From Escherichia coli (GTDB lineage Bacteria > Pseudomonadota > Gammaproteobacteria > Enterobacterales > Enterobacteriaceae), in assembly GCF_003334385.1 (NCBI RefSeq), contig NZ_QOWN01000010.1: 64,000 nt of DNA; one strand, 5' to 3'. Below, one piece after another: positions 65 through 39,626 of this stretch. Position 1 is the stretch's first letter, and each line of letters opens with the position of its first letter. The notes below the pieces were generated by a model that ran no database searches, was not told the DNA's origin, and was given only the letters and a program-made list of their open reading frames with translations. The position numbers were made by a program, and so were the translations under genes.

Positions 65-98
65 GTTAGCGCTTATGGGTTTCGGCCCCGGTTCTCTT

Positions 99-725
99 TT
101 ATTTCTGCTTCGTTAACGTGTCATAACTGGTCATCAAATTACGATAATCAGGAATGTGGTTAGAGAACAACGTCGCCAGTCCTTCAATATCATTACGCCA
201 GTCGCGATGCAGCTCGCACGCCACGCCGAACCATGTCATCAATTGCGCACCAGCTTGCGACAAGCGATCCCATGCCGAATGCCGGGTAATTTCATTAAAG
301 GTCCCTGACGCGTCAGTCACGACAAAGACGTCAAACCCTTCTTCAATGGCTGAAAGCGCCGGGAATGCCACGCAAACTTCGGTTACCACACCGGCAATAA
401 TTAACTGTTTTTTACCTGTCGCTTTGACAGCTTTTACAAAATCTTCGTTATCCCAGGCGTTAATATTTCCCGGGCGAGCAATGTAAGGTGTATCGGGGAA
501 TTGTGCTTTCAGTTCTGGAACTAATGGGCCGTTAGGACCGGTTTCAAAACTGGTGGTAAGAATAGTTGGTAAGTTGAAATACTTAGCCAGGTCACCCAGC
601 GCCAGCACGTTATTTTTAAACTTATCGGGTTCGATATCCCGTACAAGGGAAAGTAAACCAGCCTGGTGATCAACAAGCAAAACGGCAGCATCATTTTTAT
701 CAAGACGAACATACGGTTTGGTCAT
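99..725 (-). CDS. ycaC: Isochorismatase-family hydrolase YcaC
   Basis: 208-aa ORF; cysteine-hydrolase fold motifs (LLVDHQ, VTEVCVAFP); synteny. Confidence 0.9.
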   Translation of the reverse strand: MTKPYVRLDKNDAAVLLVDHQAGLLSLVRDIEPDKFKNNVLALGDLAKYFNLPTILTTSFETGPNGPLVPELKAQFPDTPYIARPGNINAWDNEDFVKAVKATGKKQLIIAGVVTEVCVAFPALSAIEEGFDVFVVTDASGTFNEITRHSAWDRLSQAGAQLMTWFGVACELHRDWRNDIEGLATLFSNHIPDYRNLMTSYDTLTKQK

Positions 726-1038
726 CCTCTTCTCCTTTCGAGAGTCAGTGGTACGTCTGAAATCGATCAGACGCGATGCATTGCTCTGAAAGCATAGACG
801 GGAAATATGAGTTTGCTGTGACCATGAAATTTTTCGACTGAACGAAGCGTATGAAATTTGTGTTAGTTCAATAAAAACAATCAGATGAGACTAATCATCT
901 CTTCAGCATTAGCGTTATGAATGAGTAATATAAATCGATAATACCGCCGCTGGGATATCGCGTATTTTCACCCATTGACAATGTTTTTGGCGGTGGCATG
1001 ATGCGCATGAAATTTGAACTTCCTCACGGTTTTAATTC

Positions 1039-2187
1039 ATGTCCACGTATACCCAGCCTGTCATGCTTTTGCTGTCTGGCCTGCTTTTGTTGACTCTGGC
1101 GATTGCGGTGTTAAATACACTCGTGCCGCTTTGGCTCGCCCAGGAACACATGTCCACATGGCAGGTAGGCGTTGTCAGCTCATCCTATTTTACCGGCAAC
1201 CTTGTCGGTACATTGCTGACAGGGTATGTCATTAAGCGCATTGGCTTTAACCGCAGCTATTATCTGGCCTCCTTCATTTTTGCCGCTGGCTGTGCCGGCC
1301 TTGGCCTGATGATTGGATTCTGGAGCTGGTTGGCTTGGCGTTTTGTCGCGGGCGTCGGCTGTGCCATGATTTGGGTGGTTGTTGAGAGCGCGCTGATGTG
1401 CAGTGGGACGTCACGTAACCGTGGGCGTTTGCTTGCTGCGTATATGATGGTTTATTACGTGGGAACGTTTTTAGGCCAGTTACTGGTCAGCAAAGTTTCA
1501 ACCGAGCTGATGTCCGTATTGCCGTGGGTTACAGGTTTGACGTTGGCAGGGATCTTACCGCTGTTGTTTACGCGTGTGCTGAATCAGCAGGCTGAAAACC
1601 ATGATTCGACGTCAATTACGTCAATGCTAAAACTCCGTCAGGCGCGGCTTGGCGTGAATGGCTGCATTATCTCAGGAATCGTTCTGGGATCTCTATATGG
1701 CCTGATGCCGCTGTACCTCAATCACAAAGGGGTGAGCAATGCCAGCATTGGTTTCTGGATGGCGGTACTGGTCAGTGCGGGTATCCTTGGACAATGGCCG
1801 ATTGGACGTCTGGCGGATAAGTTTGGTCGACTGCTGGTGTTGCGTGTTCAGGTCTTTGTCGTCATTCTCGGCAGTATCGCGATGCTTAGCCAGGCGGCGA
1901 TGGCCCCAGCGTTATTCATCCTCGGTGCCGCTGGCTTTACGCTATATCCGGTGGCGATGGCATGGGCTTGCGAGAAAGTTGAACATCATCAACTGGTGGC
2001 GATGAACCAGGCCTTACTGTTGAGCTATACTGTGGGAAGTCTGCTTGGCCCGTCATTTACCGCTATGCTAATGCAGAATTTCTCCGATAATTTATTGTTT
2101 ATCATGATCGCCAGCGTATCGTTTATCTATTTGCTGATGCTGCTGCGCAACGCCGGTCATACGCCGAAACCCGTTGCTCACGTGTAA
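1039..2187 (+). CDS. ycaD: MFS-family transporter
   Basis: 382-aa highly hydrophobic ORF with multi-TM profile; synteny. Confidence 0.9.
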
Positions 2188-2396
2188 ATGAATTCAAGCA
2201 GAGTGTGAACTTACTGTTTCACACTCTGCTTTTTTGTTTCTTCTATCTGACTTGCTTTATTCCAAATTTTATTCGTTTAAAAATAAAATGTGCAGCAGGT
2301 TATAATTTTGCATTTCGCTATTTCCGCACTTCTTATTTGCCGCGCATAATCCCTCGTTTTACAGATGCCCCTTTAATTTTGGCGAAGGATTTGTCT

Positions 2397-3827
2397 ATGG
2401 CTGGGAATGTTCAGGAAAAACAGTTGCGATGGTACAACATTGCGCTGATGTCTTTTATCACTGTCTGGGGTTTTGGCAACGTTGTTAATAACTATGCCAA
2501 CCAGGGGCTGGTGGTTGTTTTTTCATGGGTGTTTATCTTTGCACTCTATTTCACACCTTATGCGCTAATTGTTGGTCAGTTAGGCTCGACCTTCAAAGAT
2601 GGGAAGGGCGGGGTCAGTACCTGGATTAAACACACGATGGGACCCGGACTGGCTTATCTCGCCGCGTGGACCTACTGGGTGGTGCATATTCCCTATCTGG
2701 CACAAAAACCCCAGGCAATTCTGATTGCGCTCGGTTGGGCGATGAAAGGCGACGGTTCGCTAATCAAAGAATATTCAGTCGTAGCGTTACAGGGGTTAAC
2801 GCTGGTGCTGTTTATCTTCTTTATGTGGGTTGCTTCACGCGGTATGAAATCGCTGAAAATCGTCGGTTCTGTGGCAGGGATTGCTATGTTTGTTATGTCG
2901 CTCCTGTATGTGGCGATGGCGGTAACCGCGCCTGCAATTACTGAAGTGCATATTGCGACCACAAACATTACCTGGGAAACGTTCATTCCTCATATCGACT
3001 TTACCTACATTACCACTATTTCAATGCTGGTTTTCGCGGTTGGCGGAGCAGAGAAGATTTCTCCTTACGTTAATCAAACGCGCAACCCAGGAAAAGAATT
3101 TCCAAAAGGGATGTTATGCCTGGCGGTGATGGTTGCGGTTTGTGCCATTCTGGGCTCGCTGGCGATGGGGATGATGTTTGATTCGCGTAATATCCCGGAT
3201 GACTTAATGACCAACGGTCAGTATTACGCCTTTCAGAAGCTGGGCGAGTATTACAACATGGGTAATACTTTAATGGTGATTTACGCCATTGCGAATACCC
3301 TGGGACAAGTAGCGGCGCTGGTATTCTCGATTGATGCCCCGCTTAAAGTGCTATTAGGTGATGCTGACAGCAAATATATTCCAGCCAGTTTATGTCGTAC
3401 CAACGCTTCTGGTACGCCCGTTAATGGCTATTTTCTGACCCTGGTACTGGTGGCGATTCTGATTATGCTGCCGACTCTCGGCATTGGTGATATGAACAAT
3501 CTCTATAAATGGCTGTTGAACCTTAATTCGGTAGTGATGCCGCTGCGTTATTTATGGGTATTTGTTGCATTTATTGCAGTCGTTCGCTTGGCGCAGAAAT
3601 ATAAACCAGAATATGTCTTTATTCGTAATAAGCCTCTGGCAATGACCGTCGGGATTTGGTGTTTTGCCTTTACCGCCTTTGCCTGTTTGACGGGGATCTT
3701 CCCGAAAATGGAAGCCTTCACTGCAGAGTGGACCTTCCAGTTGGCGCTGAATGTTGCAACGCCGTTTGTGCTGGTAGGATTAGGACTGATATTCCCGCTG
3801 CTGGCGCGTAAAGCGAATAGTAAATAA
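2397..3827 (+). CDS. ycaM: Putative APC-family inner-membrane transporter
   Basis: ORF track gives 540 aa from 2205; internal ATG at 2397 (MAGNVQEK…) gives the expected 476-aa product; hydrophobic. Confidence 0.85.
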   Translation: MAGNVQEKQLRWYNIALMSFITVWGFGNVVNNYANQGLVVVFSWVFIFALYFTPYALIVGQLGSTFKDGKGGVSTWIKHTMGPGLAYLAAWTYWVVHIPYLAQKPQAILIALGWAMKGDGSLIKEYSVVALQGLTLVLFIFFMWVASRGMKSLKIVGSVAGIAMFVMSLLYVAMAVTAPAITEVHIATTNITWETFIPHIDFTYITTISMLVFAVGGAEKISPYVNQTRNPGKEFPKGMLCLAVMVAVCAILGSLAMGMMFDSRNIPDDLMTNGQYYAFQKLGEYYNMGNTLMVIYAIANTLGQVAALVFSIDAPLKVLLGDADSKYIPASLCRTNASGTPVNGYFLTLVLVAILIMLPTLGIGDMNNLYKWLLNLNSVVMPLRYLWVFVAFIAVVRLAQKYKPEYVFIRNKPLAMTVGIWCFAFTAFACLTGIFPKMEAFTAEWTFQLALNVATPFVLVGLGLIFPLLARKANSK

Positions 3828-17161: not shown

Positions 17162-18835
17162 ATGACTGAATCTTTTGCTCAACTCTTTGAAGAGTCCTTA
17201 AAAGAAATCGAAACCCGCCCGGGTTCTATCGTTCGTGGCGTTGTTGTTGCTATCGACAAAGACGTAGTACTGGTTGACGCTGGTCTGAAATCTGAGTCCG
17301 CCATCCCGGCTGAGCAGTTCAAAAACGCCCAAGGCGAGCTGGAAATCCAGGTAGGTGACGAAGTTGACGTTGCTCTGGACGCAGTAGAAGACGGCTTCGG
17401 TGAAACTCTGCTGTCCCGTGAGAAAGCTAAACGTCACGAAGCCTGGATCACGCTGGAAAAAGCTTACGAAGATGCTGAAACTGTTACCGGTGTTATCAAC
17501 GGCAAAGTTAAGGGCGGCTTCACTGTTGAGCTGAACGGTATTCGTGCGTTCCTGCCAGGTTCTCTGGTAGACGTTCGTCCGGTGCGTGACACTCTGCACC
17601 TGGAAGGCAAAGAGCTTGAATTTAAAGTAATCAAGCTGGATCAGAAGCGCAACAACGTTGTTGTTTCTCGTCGTGCCGTTATCGAATCCGAAAACAGCGC
17701 AGAGCGCGATCAGCTGCTGGAAAACCTGCAGGAAGGCATGGAAGTTAAAGGTATCGTTAAGAACCTCACTGACTACGGTGCATTCGTTGATCTGGGCGGC
17801 GTTGACGGCCTGCTGCACATCACTGACATGGCCTGGAAACGCGTTAAGCATCCGAGCGAAATCGTCAACGTGGGCGACGAAATCACTGTTAAAGTGCTGA
17901 AGTTCGACCGCGAACGTACCCGTGTATCCCTGGGCCTGAAACAGCTGGGCGAAGATCCGTGGGTAGCTATCGCTAAACGTTATCCGGAAGGTACCAAACT
18001 GACTGGTCGCGTGACCAACCTGACCGACTACGGCTGCTTCGTTGAAATCGAAGAAGGCGTTGAAGGCCTGGTACACGTTTCCGAAATGGATTGGACCAAC
18101 AAAAACATCCACCCGTCCAAAGTTGTTAACGTTGGCGATGTAGTGGAAGTTATGGTTCTGGATATCGACGAAGAACGTCGTCGTATCTCCCTGGGTCTGA
18201 AACAGTGCAAAGCTAACCCGTGGCAGCAGTTCGCGGAAACCCACAACAAGGGCGACCGTGTTGAAGGTAAAATCAAGTCTATCACTGACTTCGGTATCTT
18301 CATCGGCCTGGACGGCGGCATCGACGGCCTGGTTCACCTGTCTGACATCTCCTGGAACGTTGCAGGCGAAGAAGCAGTTCGTGAATACAAAAAAGGCGAC
18401 GAAATCGCTGCAGTTGTTCTGCAGGTTGACGCAGAACGTGAACGTATCTCCCTGGGCGTTAAACAGCTCGCAGAAGATCCGTTCAACAACTGGGTTGCTC
18501 TGAACAAGAAAGGCGCTATCGTAACCGGTAAAGTAACTGCAGTTGACGCTAAAGGCGCAACCGTAGAACTGGCTGACGGCGTTGAAGGTTACCTGCGTGC
18601 TTCTGAAGCATCCCGTGACCGCGTTGAAGACGCTACCCTGGTTCTGAGCGTTGGCGACGAAGTTGAAGCTAAATTCACCGGCGTTGATCGTAAAAACCGC
18701 GCAATCAGCCTGTCTGTTCGTGCGAAAGACGAAGCTGACGAGAAAGATGCAATCGCAACTGTTAACAAACAGGAAGATGCAAACTTCTCCAACAACGCAA
18801 TGGCTGAAGCTTTCAAAGCAGCTAAAGGCGAGTAA
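17162..18835 (+). CDS. rpsA: 30S ribosomal protein S1
   Basis: 557 aa; six tandem S1 domains; very strong codon bias. Confidence 0.98.
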
Positions 18836-18845
18836 TTCTCTGACT

Positions 18846-18870
18846 CTTCGGGATTTTTATTCCGAAGTTT
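18846..18870 (+). terminator. rpsA intrinsic terminator
   Basis: CTTCGG-gatttttat-CCGAAG followed by TTTgTTg. Confidence 0.6.
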
Positions 18871-18994
18871 GTTGAGTTTACTTGACAGATTGCAGGTTTC
18901 GTCCTGTAATCAAGCACTAAGGGCGGCTACGGCCGCCCTTAATCAATGCAGCAACAGCAGCCGCTTAATTTGCCTTTAAGGAACCGGAGGAATC

Positions 18995-19279
18995 ATGACC
19001 AAGTCAGAATTGATAGAAAGACTTGCCACCCAGCAATCGCACATTCCCGCCAAGACGGTTGAAGATGCAGTAAAAGAGATGCTGGAGCATATGGCCTCGA
19101 CTCTTGCGCAGGGCGAGCGTATTGAAATCCGCGGTTTCGGCAGTTTCTCTTTGCACTACCGCGCACCACGTACCGGACGTAATCCGAAGACTGGCGATAA
19201 AGTAGAACTGGAAGGAAAATACGTTCCTCACTTTAAACCTGGTAAAGAACTGCGCGATCGCGCCAATATTTACGGTTAA
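18995..19279 (+). CDS. ihfB: Integration host factor beta subunit
   Basis: 94 aa; [11 protein letters not shown]…[12 protein letters not shown] (HU/IHF fold). Confidence 0.98.
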
Positions 19280-19305
19280 GTTTTTTACTCAAACTTGAAC
19301 GAGAG

Positions 19306-19330
19306 AAAAGCACCTGTCGGGTGCTTTTTT
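19306..19330 (+). terminator. ihfB intrinsic terminator
   Basis: AGCACC-tgtcg-GGTGCT followed by TTTTTT. Confidence 0.8.
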
Positions 19331-19486
19331 CATTTCTCTAATCTGGAACTGGAAGCTGCCTCGCAGAGTTTTGAACAGTTTTCACCCTTTCGTTAAATTC
19401 TTCTGAATATGCCTCGGGGAACGCAAAATTCCCACCAGACAACCGCTCAACAAAGTTGCACACTTTCCATAAACAGGGAGGGGTGC

Positions 19487-21751
19487 ATGAAAATAACGAC
19501 AGTCGGTGTATGCATAATTAGCGGAATTTTTCCGTTGCTGATTTTGCCCCAATTGCCTGGGACATTAACCCTTGCGTTTCTGACTCTCTTCGCCTGCGTA
19601 CTGGCATTTATCCCTGTTAAAACCGTCCGTTATATCGCGCTGACGTTGCTGTTTTTCGTTTGGGGCATATTATCAGCAAAGCAAATTTTGTGGGCAGGAG
19701 AAACCTTAACTGGCGCGACGCAGGATGCAATTGTTGAGATCACTGCAACTGACGGCATGACCACTCATTACGGTCAAATTACTCATCTACAAGGTCGACG
19801 TATATTCCCTGCGTCAGGTCTCGTGATGTATGGCGAATATCTTCCGCAAGCGGTTTGTGCTGGACAACAATGGTCAATGAAACTCAAAGTTCGTGCAGTT
19901 CATGGCCAACTTAATGATGGCGGCTTTGATAGCCAGCGTTATGCCATTGCCCAGCATCAGCTGCTCACCGGCCGTTTTCTGCAGGCAAGTGTCATTGAAC
20001 CGAATTGTAGCCTGCGTGCACAGTATCTGGCGTCACTACAAACAACGCTGCAACCCTATCCGTGGAATGCGGTTATTCTTGGTTTAGGTATGGGGGAACG
20101 GTTATCCGTCCCCAAAGAAATCAAAAATATCATGCGCGATACTGGAACGGCGCATTTAATGGCGATATCGGGATTGCACATCGCTTTTGCGGCGTTGCTG
20201 GCTGCCGGACTCATTCGCAGTGGACAAATTTTTCTGCCTGGGCGCTGGATCCACTGGCAAATACCATTAATTGGCGGAATCTGCTGTGCTGCTTTTTATG
20301 CCTGGTTGACGGGAATGCAACCTCCTGCATTGCGTACCATGGTGGCGCTTGCTACGTGGGGAATGCTTAAGTTAAGTGGGCGACAGTGGAGTGGCTGGGA
20401 TGTATGGATATGTTGTCTGGCGGCAATTTTGCTGATGGATCCTGTTGCCATTCTCTCGCAAAGTTTATGGCTCTCTGCCGCTGCGGTCGCGGCATTGATA
20501 TTTTGGTATCAGTGGTTTCCCTGTCCTGAGTGGCAACTGCCGCCGGTATTGCGTGCAGTTGTTTCCCTCATCCATCTGCAACTGGGAATCACACTTCTGC
20601 TTATGCCCGTGCAAATCGTCATATTTCATGGCATTAGTCTGACCTCGTTTATTGCAAATCTATTAGCAATTCCCTTGGTGACATTTATCACGGTTCCGTT
20701 GATCCTCGCCGCGATGGTTGTGCATTTAAGCGGGCCGTTAATCCTGGAGCAAGGGTTATGGTTTCTTGCCGACCGGTCTTTGGCTTTACTTTTCTGGGGG
20801 TTAAAGAGTTTGCCGGAAGGGTGGATCAACATTGCTGAATGTTGGCAATGGCTATCATTTTCCCCATGGTTCTTACTGGTGGTATGGCGATTAAACGCCT
20901 GGCGAACGTTGCCAGCAATGTGTGTGGCTGGAGGCTTGCTGATGTGCTGGCCGCTGTGGCAAAAACCTCGACCTGACGAGTGGCAGCTGTACATGCTTGA
21001 TGTCGGGCAAGGGCTGGCAATGGTGATAGCCAGAAACGGCAAAGAGATTCTCTATGACACAGGACTGGCCTGGCCTGAAGGGGATAGTGGGCAACAACTG
21101 ATTATCCCCTGGCTCCACTGGCATAATCTTGAACCGGAAGGCGTTATTCTGAGCCATGAACATCTGGATCACCGGGGAGGGCTGGATTCAATATTGCATA
21201 TATGGCCGATGTTATGGATCAGAAGTCCGTTAAACTGGGAACATCATCAGCCCTGTGTGCGTGGCGAAGCGTGGCAATGGCAAGGATTGCGTTTCAGCGC
21301 GCACTGGCCTTTACAAGGTAGCAACGATAAAGGAAATAACCATTCCTGTGTGGTTAAGGTTGATGACGGGACGAATAGCATTCTTCTAACCGGTGATATT
21401 GAAGCCCCAGCTGAACAAAAGATGCTAAGCCGTTACTGGCAGCAAGTGCAGGCAACATTGCTTCAGGTACCTCACCATGGCAGTAATACCTCATCATCGT
21501 TGCCATTAATTCAGCGAGTGAATGGAAAAGTGGCACTCGCATCGGCATCGCGCTATAACGCATGGCGACTGCCCTCTAACAAAGTTAAGCATCGCTATCA
21601 ACTGCAAGGATATCAATGGATTGATACTCCACATCAAGGTCAAACAACGGTCAATTTTTCAGCGCAAGGCTGGCGGATTAGCAGCCTCAGGGAGCAAATT
21701 TTACCTCGTTGGTATCATCAGTGGTTTGGCGTGCCAGTGGATAACGGGTAG
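19487..21751 (+). CDS. ycaI: ComEC/Rec2-family inner-membrane protein with C-terminal metallo-beta-lactamase domain
   Basis: 754 aa from MKITTVGV… (RBS AGGGAGGGG upstream); polytopic N-terminus; MBL motif SHEHLDHRGG. Confidence 0.88.
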   Translation: MKITTVGVCIISGIFPLLILPQLPGTLTLAFLTLFACVLAFIPVKTVRYIALTLLFFVWGILSAKQILWAGETLTGATQDAIVEITATDGMTTHYGQITHLQGRRIFPASGLVMYGEYLPQAVCAGQQWSMKLKVRAVHGQLNDGGFDSQRYAIAQHQLLTGRFLQASVIEPNCSLRAQYLASLQTTLQPYPWNAVILGLGMGERLSVPKEIKNIMRDTGTAHLMAISGLHIAFAALLAAGLIRSGQIFLPGRWIHWQIPLIGGICCAAFYAWLTGMQPPALRTMVALATWGMLKLSGRQWSGWDVWICCLAAILLMDPVAILSQSLWLSAAAVAALIFWYQWFPCPEWQLPPVLRAVVSLIHLQLGITLLLMPVQIVIFHGISLTSFIANLLAIPLVTFITVPLILAAMVVHLSGPLILEQGLWFLADRSLALLFWGLKSLPEGWINIAECWQWLSFSPWFLLVVWRLNAWRTLPAMCVAGGLLMCWPLWQKPRPDEWQLYMLDVGQGLAMVIARNGKEILYDTGLAWPEGDSGQQLIIPWLHWHNLEPEGVILSHEHLDHRGGLDSILHIWPMLWIRSPLNWEHHQPCVRGEAWQWQGLRFSAHWPLQGSNDKGNNHSCVVKVDDGTNSILLTGDIEAPAEQKMLSRYWQQVQATLLQVPHHGSNTSSSLPLIQRVNGKVALASASRYNAWRLPSNKVKHRYQLQGYQWIDTPHQGQTTVNFSAQGWRISSLREQILPRWYHQWFGVPVDNG

Positions 21752-21787
21752 AATATGCGGCTATTTCAACAAATGCTGGTTTTTTGA

Positions 21788-23536
21788 ATGCATAACGACA
21801 AAGATCTCTCTACGTGGCAGACATTCCGCCGACTGTGGCCAACCATTGCGCCTTTCAAAGCGGGTCTGATCGTGGCGGGCGTAGCGTTAATCCTCAACGC
21901 AGCCAGCGATACCTTCATGTTATCGCTCCTTAAGCCACTTCTTGATGATGGCTTTGGTAAAACAGATCGCTCCGTGCTGGTGTGGATGCCGCTGGTGGTG
22001 ATCGGGCTGATGATTTTACGTGGTATCACCAGCTATGTCTCCAGCTACTGTATCTCCTGGGTATCAGGAAAGGTGGTAATGACCATGCGTCGCCGCCTGT
22101 TTGGTCACATGATGGGAATGCCAGTTTCATTCTTTGACAAACAGTCAACGGGTACGCTGTTGTCACGTATTACCTACGATTCCGAACAGGTTGCTTCTTC
22201 TTCTTCCGGCGCACTGATTACTGTTGTGCGTGAAGGTGCGTCGATCATCGGCCTGTTCATCATGATGTTCTATTACAGTTGGCAACTGTCGATCATTTTG
22301 ATTGTGCTGGCACCGATTGTTTCGATTGCGATTCGCGTTGTATCGAAGCGTTTTCGCAACATCAGTAAAAACATGCAGAACACCATGGGGCAGGTGACCA
22401 CCAGCGCAGAACAAATGCTGAAGGGCCACAAAGAAGTATTGATTTTCGGTGGTCAGGAAGTGGAAACGAAACGCTTTGATAAAGTCAGCAACCGAATGCG
22501 TCTTCAGGGGATGAAAATGGTTTCAGCCTCTTCCATCTCTGATCCGATCATTCAGCTGATCGCCTCTTTGGCGCTGGCGTTTGTTCTGTATGCGGCGAGC
22601 TTCCCAAGTGTCATGGATAGCCTGACTGCCGGTACGATTACCGTTGTTTTCTCTTCAATGATTGCACTGATGCGTCCGCTGAAATCGCTGACCAACGTTA
22701 ACGCCCAGTTCCAGCGCGGTATGGCGGCTTGTCAGACGCTGTTTACCATTCTGGACAGTGAGCAGGAGAAAGATGAAGGTAAGCGCGTGATCGAGCGTGC
22801 GACTGGCGACGTGGAATTCCGCAATGTCACCTTTACTTATCCGGGACGTGACGTACCTGCATTGCGTAACATCAACCTGAAAATTCCGGCAGGGAAGACG
22901 GTTGCTCTGGTTGGACGCTCTGGTTCGGGTAAATCAACCATCGCCAGCCTGATCACGCGTTTTTACGATATTGATGAAGGCGAAATCCTGATGGATGGTC
23001 ACGATCTGCGCGAGTATACCCTGGCGTCGTTACGTAACCAGGTTGCTCTGGTGTCGCAGAATGTCCATCTGTTTAACGATACGGTTGCTAACAACATTGC
23101 TTACGCACGGACTGAACAGTACAGCCGTGAGCAAATTGAAGAAGCGGCGCGTATGGCCTACGCCATGGACTTCATCAATAAGATGGATAACGGTCTCGAT
23201 ACAGTGATTGGTGAAAACGGCGTGCTGCTCTCTGGCGGTCAGCGTCAGCGTATTGCTATCGCTCGAGCCTTGTTGCGTGATAGCCCGATTCTGATTCTGG
23301 ACGAAGCTACCTCGGCTCTGGATACCGAATCCGAACGTGCGATTCAGGCGGCACTGGATGAGTTGCAGAAAAACCGTACCTCTCTGGTGATTGCCCACCG
23401 CTTGTCTACCATTGAAAAGGCAGACGAAATCGTGGTCGTCGAGGATGGTGTCATTGTGGAACGCGGTACGCATAACGATTTGCTTGAGCACCGCGGCGTT
23501 TACGCGCAACTTCACAAAATGCAGTTTGGCCAATGA
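21788..23536 (+). CDS. msbA: Lipid A export ABC transporter (fused permease/ATPase)
   Basis: 582 aa; Walker [10 protein letters not shown], signature LSGGQRQR, Walker [13 protein letters not shown]. Confidence 0.98.
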
Positions 23537-39527: not shown

Positions 39528-39626
39528 GCCGGATGCGGCACGAGCGCCTTATCCGGCCTACAAAATCGTGCAAATTCAAAATATTGCAGGGGACGCGTAG
39601 GCCTGATAAGCGTAGCGCATCAGGCA
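39528..39626. repeat. BIME: two REP units in inverted orientation
   Basis: REP1 GCCGGATGCGGCACGAGCGCCTTATCCGGCCTAC (39528-39561) and inverted REP2 GTAGGCCTGATAAGCGTAGCGCATCAGGCA (39597-39626). Confidence 0.85.

Follow-up and report, generated by a model that had tools for sequence, protein, structure and literature searches.

The intact comEC/rec2 gene ycaI of Escherichia coli: a probable silent competence gene with a predicted msbA promoter embedded at its stop codon

Why does Escherichia coli, which is not regarded as naturally transformable, keep a gene for what appears to be a complete DNA-import channel directly in front of essential genes of lipid A export and synthesis? The gene in question is ycaI, located at positions 19487 to 21751 of a 64,000-nucleotide stretch of E. 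coli DNA (contig NZ_QOWN01000010.1). This whole stretch, called the window below, is a chromosome segment that extends from ycaC to past pyrD. The gene lies on the + strand, as do all features described here unless stated otherwise, and is followed by msbA (21788-23536) and lpxK (23533-24519), which encode the essential lipid A flippase and kinase (together 21788-24519). The overall best explanation, to which we assign a probability of roughly two in three, is a nested arrangement in which ycaI is a silent comEC gene of an Sxy/CRP competence program and carries, embedded at its end, a promoter for msbA. The original prediction for this locus called it a long-standing curiosity, and it has indeed been published as such (PMC3330819, PMC6135910). 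The gene identity, the label 'ycaI-msbA-lpxK-ycaQ operon' for the unit (PMC10328246, PMC3001078), the predicted CRP-S control and the puzzle of intact competence genes in a non-transformable species are already known. The putative msbA promoter that contains the ycaI stop codon, together with the depth of its conservation, was absent from the ycaI literature searched, with RegulonDB and EcoCyc outside the scope of that search, and adds a modest new detail.

The segment 19280-21800 was 100% identical to E. coli strain SCU-104, and the RefSeq gene coordinates coincided with the window coordinates. Translation from the annotated ATG at 19487 (MKITT...) to the TAG stop gave the 754-residue ComEC/Rec2 orthologue encoded by the RefSeq ycaI coding sequence of SCU-104. 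The start is preceded by a ribosome-binding site, AGGGAGGGG (19475-19483, core GGAGG at 19478-19482). Phylogenetic footprinting was carried out over 64 Enterobacterales ihfB-ycaI intergenic regions, and ACA(G/A)GGAGG stood before the start in nearly all of them. An alternative ATG at 19409, which would add 26 codons, was rejected because both the ribosome-binding site, with its GGAGG 4 nt before 19487, and the start at 19487 were conserved across the 64 sequences.

YcaI matched the ComEC_Rec2 equivalog TIGR00361 of NCBIfam over residues 65-718 with 1124.6 bits (cutoff 190.05), and the NCBIfam model NF008580 with 1301 bits (cutoff 969). Three Pfam domains were recognized within the protein. DUF4131 (PF13567), the N-terminal soluble domain with the predicted OB fold of ComEC, covered residues 27-162 (19565-19972) at a modest score (E 3.4e-5), with the N-terminal hydrophobic segments on one side of it and the channel domain on the other. 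The Competence channel domain (PF03772) followed at residues 201-467 (20087-20887; E 4e-53). It contained the channel motif G-x-x-H-L-x-x-x-S-G-x-H in the form GTAHLMAISGLH at residues 220-231, where G220, H223, L224, A226 to G229 (including S228) and H231 were invariant in 77 sequences. The C-terminal metallo-beta-lactamase (MBL) domain, of the nuclease type (Lactamase_B, PF00753), covered residues 505-686 (20999-21544; E 2e-22). MBL motifs I-V were all present, and D505, D524, H557, H559, D561, H562, N617, D637, H663 and H664 were invariant in 77 sequences. A hydropathy scan found hydrophobic stretches at residues 3-64 and 225-412, separated by a soluble stretch (about 65-224) and followed by another that starts at about 413 and includes Lactamase_B, a pattern that fits a polytopic protein. 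The best match to a solved full-length ComEC/Rec2 structure was 9vc9 (E 2.2e-77, residues 105-747). The solved chains 9vc9, 9vcb and 9vcf gave E values between 2e-77 and 3e-74 from residue 105 or 119 to 747, and 30bt gave 7e-21. The original prediction had described a full-length ComEC-like polytopic protein with an intact MBL motif SHEHLDHRGG. The equivalog hidden Markov model score above cutoff, the three Pfam domains and the hydropathy pattern all bore this out, and the motif was found at residues 556-565 (21152-21181) with every metal ligand invariant. A 754-residue open reading frame with these family matches is far beyond chance. Judged by its sequence, 19487-21751 is the well-known E. 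coli ycaI, an intact gene for a ComEC/Rec2 DNA-import channel.

The comparison with ComEC of Bacillus subtilis and Moorella thermoacetica revealed one difference within an otherwise shared plan. These proteins have the same layout of DUF4131, Competence and Lactamase_B and the same MBL motifs I-V, including the motif III Asn (N617 in YcaI), and YcaI matched the solved chains 30bt and 9ic4. Nuclease activity of the MBL domain has been shown for Moorella and Bacillus ComEC (PMC8579336). Motif II, however, reads HxDxDH in these proteins and HxHxDH in YcaI. The HxHxDH form was found in 26 Enterobacterales representatives, in contrast to HxDxDH in 110 other ComEC representatives, including those of Vibrionaceae. 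In the characterized enzyme the HxDxDH aspartates bind Mn2+, and their mutation abolished binding (PMC8579336). The change in YcaI affects this Mn2+-binding Asp position, so its metal preference may differ.

The YcaI protein is kept functional by selection and shows no decay. Each of the 5,426 complete E. coli genomes contained the gene, with at least 80% coverage in one piece in 5,424 of them. Among 80 species-level Enterobacterales loci an internal stop was absent in 79, and the predicted length was 749-759 aa. Nei-Gojobori ratios of nonsynonymous to synonymous substitution (dN/dS) within Escherichia were 0.08-0.115 for ycaI, 0.015-0.05 for msbA and 0.07-0.13 for ycaQ. Such ratios, the nearly constant length and the invariance of the catalytic and channel residues can be explained only by selection that acts on the protein. 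The sole gross disruption in the 5,426 complete genomes occurred in strain 90-3040 (NZ_CP027459.1), where a Mu-like prophage of about 39 kb splits ycaI at a point corresponding to window position ~20710. This prophage carries genes for Mu transposase, Gam, Mor, Com and a cytosine methyltransferase, and the 3' fragment of ycaI still lies 36 bp before an intact msbA. YcaI sequence clusters of 611, 528, 481 and 480 aa proved to be mixed collections whose members are partial, carry frameshifts or have internal deletions. Assemblies of O157:H7 have been reported to encode a 462-aa form, but in one complete O157:H7 genome ycaI was intact.

If the protein is maintained, the next question is when it would be made, and the ihfB-ycaI spacer bears on this. 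The best terminator-like match of the region is an intrinsic terminator of ihfB at 19303-19337, with a stem GAGAAAAGCACC...GGTGCTTTTTTC of 13 pairs, 5 of them GC, and a T-tract. Its core, GCACC...GGTGC-TTTTTT, was conserved in the 64-sequence alignment. Effective termination of ihfB has been reported in Salmonella (PMC8942017), and by its sequence the terminator is predicted to insulate ycaI from rpsA-ihfB transcription. Footprinting revealed four conserved elements amid an otherwise randomized spacer, namely two CRP-S-like sites, CAGACA-17-CACACT and the ribosome-binding site. A CRP-S site combines one TGCGA half-site with one weak half-site in class-I geometry (PMC6728893). CRP-S-like site 1, TGGAA-GCTGCC-TCGCA (19350-19365), has a weak half and, nearer the gene, a perfect TGCGA-type half (TCGCA). 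Its columns, counted out of 64, were T50 G47 (G39/C21) (A41/G23) A57 ... T50 C58 G47 C58 A56, and the left half was TGCGA in 12 sequences, those of more distant genera. Site 2, CTGAA-TATGCC-TCGGG (19403-19418), is a weaker match 53 bp downstream of site 1 (columns G41 A55 A40 ... C58 G60 (T29/C26) A52). The putative weak core promoter of ycaI (19436-19464) consists of CAGACA (19436-19441), a 17-nt spacer and CACACT (19459-19464), with columns C59. G61 A55 C50 A40 and G49 C63 A64 C48 A58 C64 T62. Site 1 was 96-99 bp from the CACACT block in every sequence. Relative to a transcription start at about 19471, which is itself only predicted from CACACT, site 2 is centered at -60.5 and site 1 at -113.5; class-I-like geometry would call for a center at about -61.5.

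A generic sigma-70 scan called no promoter in the ihfB-ycaI spacer, which fits an activator-dependent ycaI promoter. A loose CRP-S pattern was not enriched, occurring 3 times in the window against an expectation of 3.65; what supports the sites is their positional conservation. Cameron and Redfield listed rec2 orthologues among 33 Enterobacteriaceae promoters with a CRP-S-type motif (38 sites), and rec2 is a member of the CRP-S competence regulon of Haemophilus influenzae (PMC1635313). Together, the upstream elements suggest that ycaI is a silent, activator-dependent (Sxy/CRP) competence gene.

Other readings of the spacer were dropped. A sigma-54 or sigma-E interpretation of the upstream blocks lacked, by eye, the required -24 or -10 elements. 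An alternative ycaI -10, GAATAT (19405-19410), which would place site 1 at about -60, was conserved neither between genera nor among three E. coli strains. No credible RNA family was found in the spacer at the Rfam gathering threshold or at E <=1. In three genera, represented by the loci L057 (Dryocola), L069 (Tenebrionibacter) and L066, the spacer contained insertions of 0.15-1.4 kb. In the alignment these fall upstream of the CRP-S-like site, so that the module from site to start is left intact.

At the opposite end of the gene, the stop at 21751 and the msbA ATG at 21788 leave a gap of 36 bp, the distance given in the original prediction, and lpxK overlaps the end of msbA. The last codons of ycaI hold a promoter-like element for msbA (21707-21754). 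It consists of the block CGTTGGTATCATCAGTGGTTTGGCGT (21707-21732), which includes a -35 hexamer TTGGCG (21726-21731), a 17-nt spacer and a -10 hexamer TAGAAT (21749-21754), the first three bases of which are the ycaI stop codon TAG. Two leader blocks, GCGGCTATTTCA (21757-21768) and GCTGGTT (21775-21781), occupy 21757-21781 and were nearly invariant across Enterobacterales junctions. The first of them spans the predicted msbA transcription start at about 21760-21762. TTGGCG-17-TAGAAT (21726-21754) was the only + strand sigma-70-like match in 18800-24700.

The conservation of this junction was deep. The succession CGTTGGTATCATCAGTGGTTTGGCGT...GGTAGAAT...GCGGCTATTTCA...GCTGGTT was nearly invariant in 72 distinct junctions, across which YcaI identity drops to 43%, and the distance from stop to ATG was 34-37 bp in 80 of 80 loci. 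Third-position conservation over the last 12 ycaI codons was 0.85, the highest of the gene, against a mean of 0.50 (window standard deviation 0.07). The codons of Y743, H744, Q745, F747 and G748 were fixed at 91-100%. Among 96 other invariant residues, which include the catalytic histidines, only 2% had codons fixed to this degree. Within E. coli, the stretch 21712-21791 (80 bp), comprising the element core and the leader, was at least 99% identical in 5,407 of 5,426 genomes, while a control of 80 bp located 110 nt upstream reached this level in just 1,657. The stretch 21600-21679, which codes for the C-terminal tail, was unusually polymorphic, with 80-95% identity in 2,853 E. coli genomes and no megablast match in 494. 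Outside the Enterobacterales, TTGGCG-17-TAGAAT recurs unchanged in Aliivibrio fischeri ES114, where the -10 again contains the stop TAG, here that of a comEC whose product is 31% identical to YcaI. The junctions of Providencia and Budvicia carry close variants. From this conservation we infer, with good support, that msbA-lpxK have a promoter of their own embedded in the last codons and the stop of ycaI.

The 36-bp gap and its surroundings contained no terminator-like site and no Rfam family (gathering threshold, E <=1). The folding of 21700-21800 was no better than that of shuffled sequences (z = -0.6), and no attenuator was found. With no terminator in the gap, transcripts that reach the end of ycaI would enter msbA. 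The original prediction placed ycaI at the head of an operon of essential genes, and the shared strand, the missing terminator and the literature label agree with this. Nevertheless, the description is overstated, since with a conserved promoter-like element at its stop ycaI need not head the msbA-lpxK operon.

Published mutants bear on the same point. Viable ycaI mutants include ycaI::kan, ΔycaI::cat, a nonsense mutant and a 5-bp deletion (PMC8151780, PMC3890546, PMC12844161, PMC4434889). These mutants, the msbA retained behind the Mu-split ycaI and the conserved element at the stop together indicate that msbA expression probably does not depend on a promoter upstream of ycaI. In a UAG-recoding project the ycaI TAG alone 'could not be replaced', and the method used there alters or inserts bases just after the stop (PMC4434889). 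The bases just past the ycaI TAG would be the rest of the -10, which we interpret as a possible explanation for the resistance of this TAG to replacement. If the ycaI UAG is read through, another 11 codons follow in frame, ending at a TGA (21785-21787) that abuts the msbA ATG (TGAATG). This frame may be the reason for the handling of ycaI as an 'overlapping ORF' (open reading frame) in the genome-recoding project.

In the nested arrangement that we favor, YcaI would be an inner-membrane protein that combines a multi-helix channel with two periplasmic domains, one an OB-type DNA-binding domain and the other an MBL nuclease. In competent bacteria, as in Bacillus, ComEC degrades one DNA strand and imports the other (PMC8579336); the MBL domain of YcaI would likewise degrade one strand while its channel passes the other. 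E. coli expressing Sxy takes up DNA in a hofQ-dependent manner (PMC3330819). YcaI would provide the inner-membrane step of this low-level, Sxy-induced uptake, and would most likely be made only when the cryptic Sxy/CRP-S competence program is on, with Sxy and cAMP-CRP active. The conserved upstream pattern would mark ycaI as a separate, weak, activator-type transcription unit behind the ihfB terminator. The conserved junction would act as the embedded promoter that mainly drives msbA-lpxK. Transcripts of ycaI would also run into msbA, giving a nested arrangement and not a single unit headed by ycaI.

Promoters of essential genes inside a preceding open reading frame are familiar from the rpoS promoter in nlpD and the ftsZ promoters in ftsA and ddlB. 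The ycaI-msbA junction resembles these cases in having a promoter in the upstream reading frame, an operon-like look, largely independent expression as predicted here, and constrained synonymous sites. It differs from them in that the -10 contains the upstream stop codon and in its conservation across at least two orders, Enterobacterales and Vibrionales.

Several points weigh against the nested arrangement. The promoters of both ycaI and msbA are predictions based on sequence. The sigma-70 scan returned 2 sites against 6.2 in shuffled sequences, so the match at the junction is not significant by itself and conservation alone carries the case. The C-terminal peptide RWYHQWFG, in which WY occurs also in Vibrio and Pasteurella, is partly under protein-level constraint. 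In Pasteurella multocida the junction sequence TTGGAT-17-TACAAT is visible by eye, lies mostly after the rec2 stop and falls below the scan threshold; conservation of the junction promoter in Pasteurellaceae is only suggestive. On the upstream side, the left half of the predicted site 1 is weak in Escherichia (TGGAA), the site lies at about -113 from the predicted start, and site 2 is degenerate. Transcription leading out of the drug cassettes is possible, and the Mu repressor gene is oriented toward msbA; the viability of the disrupted strains is therefore no proof of an internal promoter. Finally, no DNA-uptake phenotype has been tied to ycaI by experiment in E. coli, and ycaI was dispensable for 'natural' plasmid transformation on agar plates, a separate route, according to Sun 2009 as cited in PMC6135910.

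The order of genes around ycaI puts the locus in a wider context. In the 80 Enterobacterales genomes the order rpsA-ihfB-ycaI-msbA-lpxK-ycaQ-ycaR was universal as far as the available sequence reached, except that a few loci had a reduced ycaQ or none at all and one had no upstream rpsA-ihfB. The order comEC-msbA-lpxK-ycaR-kdsB was found in Budvicia, Providencia, A. fischeri, Vibrio algivorus, a lolCDE-DUF2062-linked relative and P. multocida. Since the competent Vibrionaceae and Pasteurellaceae have this same order, the placement beside lipid A genes is no E. coli oddity. The original prediction counted this placement as part of the curiosity; with the order shared by A. fischeri, V. algivorus and P. 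multocida, it is not peculiar to a non-transformable organism. The gene order, with a similarly placed promoter-like sequence, would predate the split of Enterobacterales, Vibrionaceae and Pasteurellaceae.

The relatives differ from E. coli in detail. In Vibrionaceae (A. fischeri ES114, V. algivorus), comEC is followed after a gap of 31-34 bp by msbA-lpxK-ycaR-kdsB, as in the E. coli order. Their ComEC proteins are about 31-37% identical to YcaI, with HxDxDH in motif II as shown for A. fischeri. Upstream of comEC lies a divergent DUF2062 gene, with no spacer comparable to that between ihfB and ycaI. The Rec2 orthologue of Pasteurellaceae (P. multocida, L089) has the same downstream msbA-lpxK-ycaR-kdsB with a short gap and no terminator. 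Its upstream neighbor is a divergent dksA, as opposed to ihfB in E. coli, and its stop is TAA, with the promoter-like sequence mostly after it. Upstream of rec2, P. multocida has a single, better CRP-S-type site, TGCGA-N6-TTCCA, which is the reverse complement of the E. coli TGGAA-N6-TCGCA pattern and thus opposite in orientation to the E. coli sites. The fourth gene of the annotated E. coli unit, ycaQ (24556-25788), encodes a DNA interstrand-crosslink glycosylase, so that DNA-handling genes stand on either side of the lipid A pair. It was missing or reduced in the loci L021, L061, L069, L074 and L080, and Vibrio and Pasteurella have no ycaQ at the locus.

A more far-reaching interpretation of this linkage sees no accident but an ancient, selected regulatory design, a two-input unit in which the promoter locks the gene order. 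The msbA promoter would have become part of the final codons and stop of comEC before the lineages of Enterobacterales, Vibrionaceae and Pasteurellaceae separated. The embedded promoter would be constitutive and provide basal expression of msbA-lpxK-(ycaQ)-ycaR-kdsB. Competence induction by CRP and Sxy would add read-through, raising lipid A export and Kdo activation while the DNA-uptake machine is inserted. In enterics the DNA-crosslink glycosylase would rise as well. We regard such a design as rather doubtful.

It is also conceivable that YcaI is kept for a different job, either in envelope homeostasis, as a periplasmic or inner-membrane phosphodiesterase or channel tied to MsbA, LpxK and KdsB, or in the import of DNA as a nucleotide source. 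The linkage with msbA-lpxK-ycaR-kdsB, conserved in three gamma-proteobacterial families, would suit an envelope function. However, the same linkage occurs in A. fischeri and P. multocida, where the gene is annotated as ComEC/Rec2 and the families have known natural competence, so the linkage implies no envelope role. Purifying selection in species never seen to transform and the shift of the Enterobacterales motif II to the canonical HxHxDH also favor another job, but all the domains and ligands that define ComEC are retained. In DH5alpha, a nonsense mutation in ycaI was accompanied by a modest drop in transformation by chemical and ultrasound methods and by changes in permeability read-outs (PMC12844161). 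The phenotypes of this 2026 mutant were small, however, and polarity on msbA is possible. The idea that com homologues of E. coli serve to use DNA as a nutrient is summarized in PMC6135910, although, in the account given there, other laboratories did not reproduce the nutrient phenotype. On balance, we consider a different job for YcaI unlikely.

A rival account of transcription has ycaI truly at the head of the unit, with one promoter upstream of it that drives msbA-lpxK and leads to co-expression of the competence homologue with the lipid A genes. The common strand, the 36-bp gap and the absence of a terminator or structured RNA all agree with this, and Mukai et al. supplied lpxK on a clone that carried ycaI-msbA-lpxK as a whole. 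Yet the spacer before ycaI has no generic promoter call, and its conserved blocks make a poor core promoter, while a conserved promoter-like element stands at the ycaI stop. Several disruptions of ycaI, including the 39-kb prophage, leave the essential msbA functional. Codon usage also differs sharply between the two genes, with strongly rare codons sixfold more frequent in ycaI (4.2%) than in msbA (0.7%). In addition, CRISPR interference combined with quantitative reverse-transcription PCR found polarity only from msbA downward, through lpxK to ycaQ (PMC10328246). A single shared promoter therefore appears quite improbable.

That ycaI is a relic, its DNA persisting only for the 3' msbA promoter and its protein irrelevant, is highly improbable. 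In its favor, conservation of the junction greatly exceeds that of the remaining gene, no other protein of the block evolves as fast as YcaI (43% identity in Pectobacterium, where MsbA has 85%), 17 nonsynonymous against 23 synonymous codon changes separate the gene from a K-12 strain, truncated or partial YcaI entries are many in sequence collections, and laboratory strains can do without ycaI. Against it, about 50 bp would suffice for a promoter, far less than 2.26 kb, and the dN/dS, the nearly constant length across 80 genomes (one exception), the invariant catalytic and channel residues and the single gross disruption in complete genomes all speak for a maintained protein.

Other features of the window lie apart from this locus. 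An Rfam gathering-level match to the small RNA ES036 (CssrF) was found in the gloC-aspC spacer (39562-39604; 53 bits), and a full-length match to the PyrD leader, RF02373 (59868-59941; 97.9 bits), as expected upstream of pyrD. At positions 1-22, on the - strand, the window starts inside what is, in SCU-104, the end of an IS4-like IS421 transposase gene beside ycaC.

For the biology of E. coli and its relatives, the results have two implications. The clear purifying selection on ycaI across Enterobacterales and its conserved CRP-S-type control region support the idea of a DNA-import pathway that enteric bacteria maintain in working order but seldom induce. In addition, the last ~45 bp of ycaI, including the TAG, resemble a promoter for the essential genes msbA and lpxK, which would affect how knock-outs, stop-codon recoding and CRISPR interference are designed and read at this locus.

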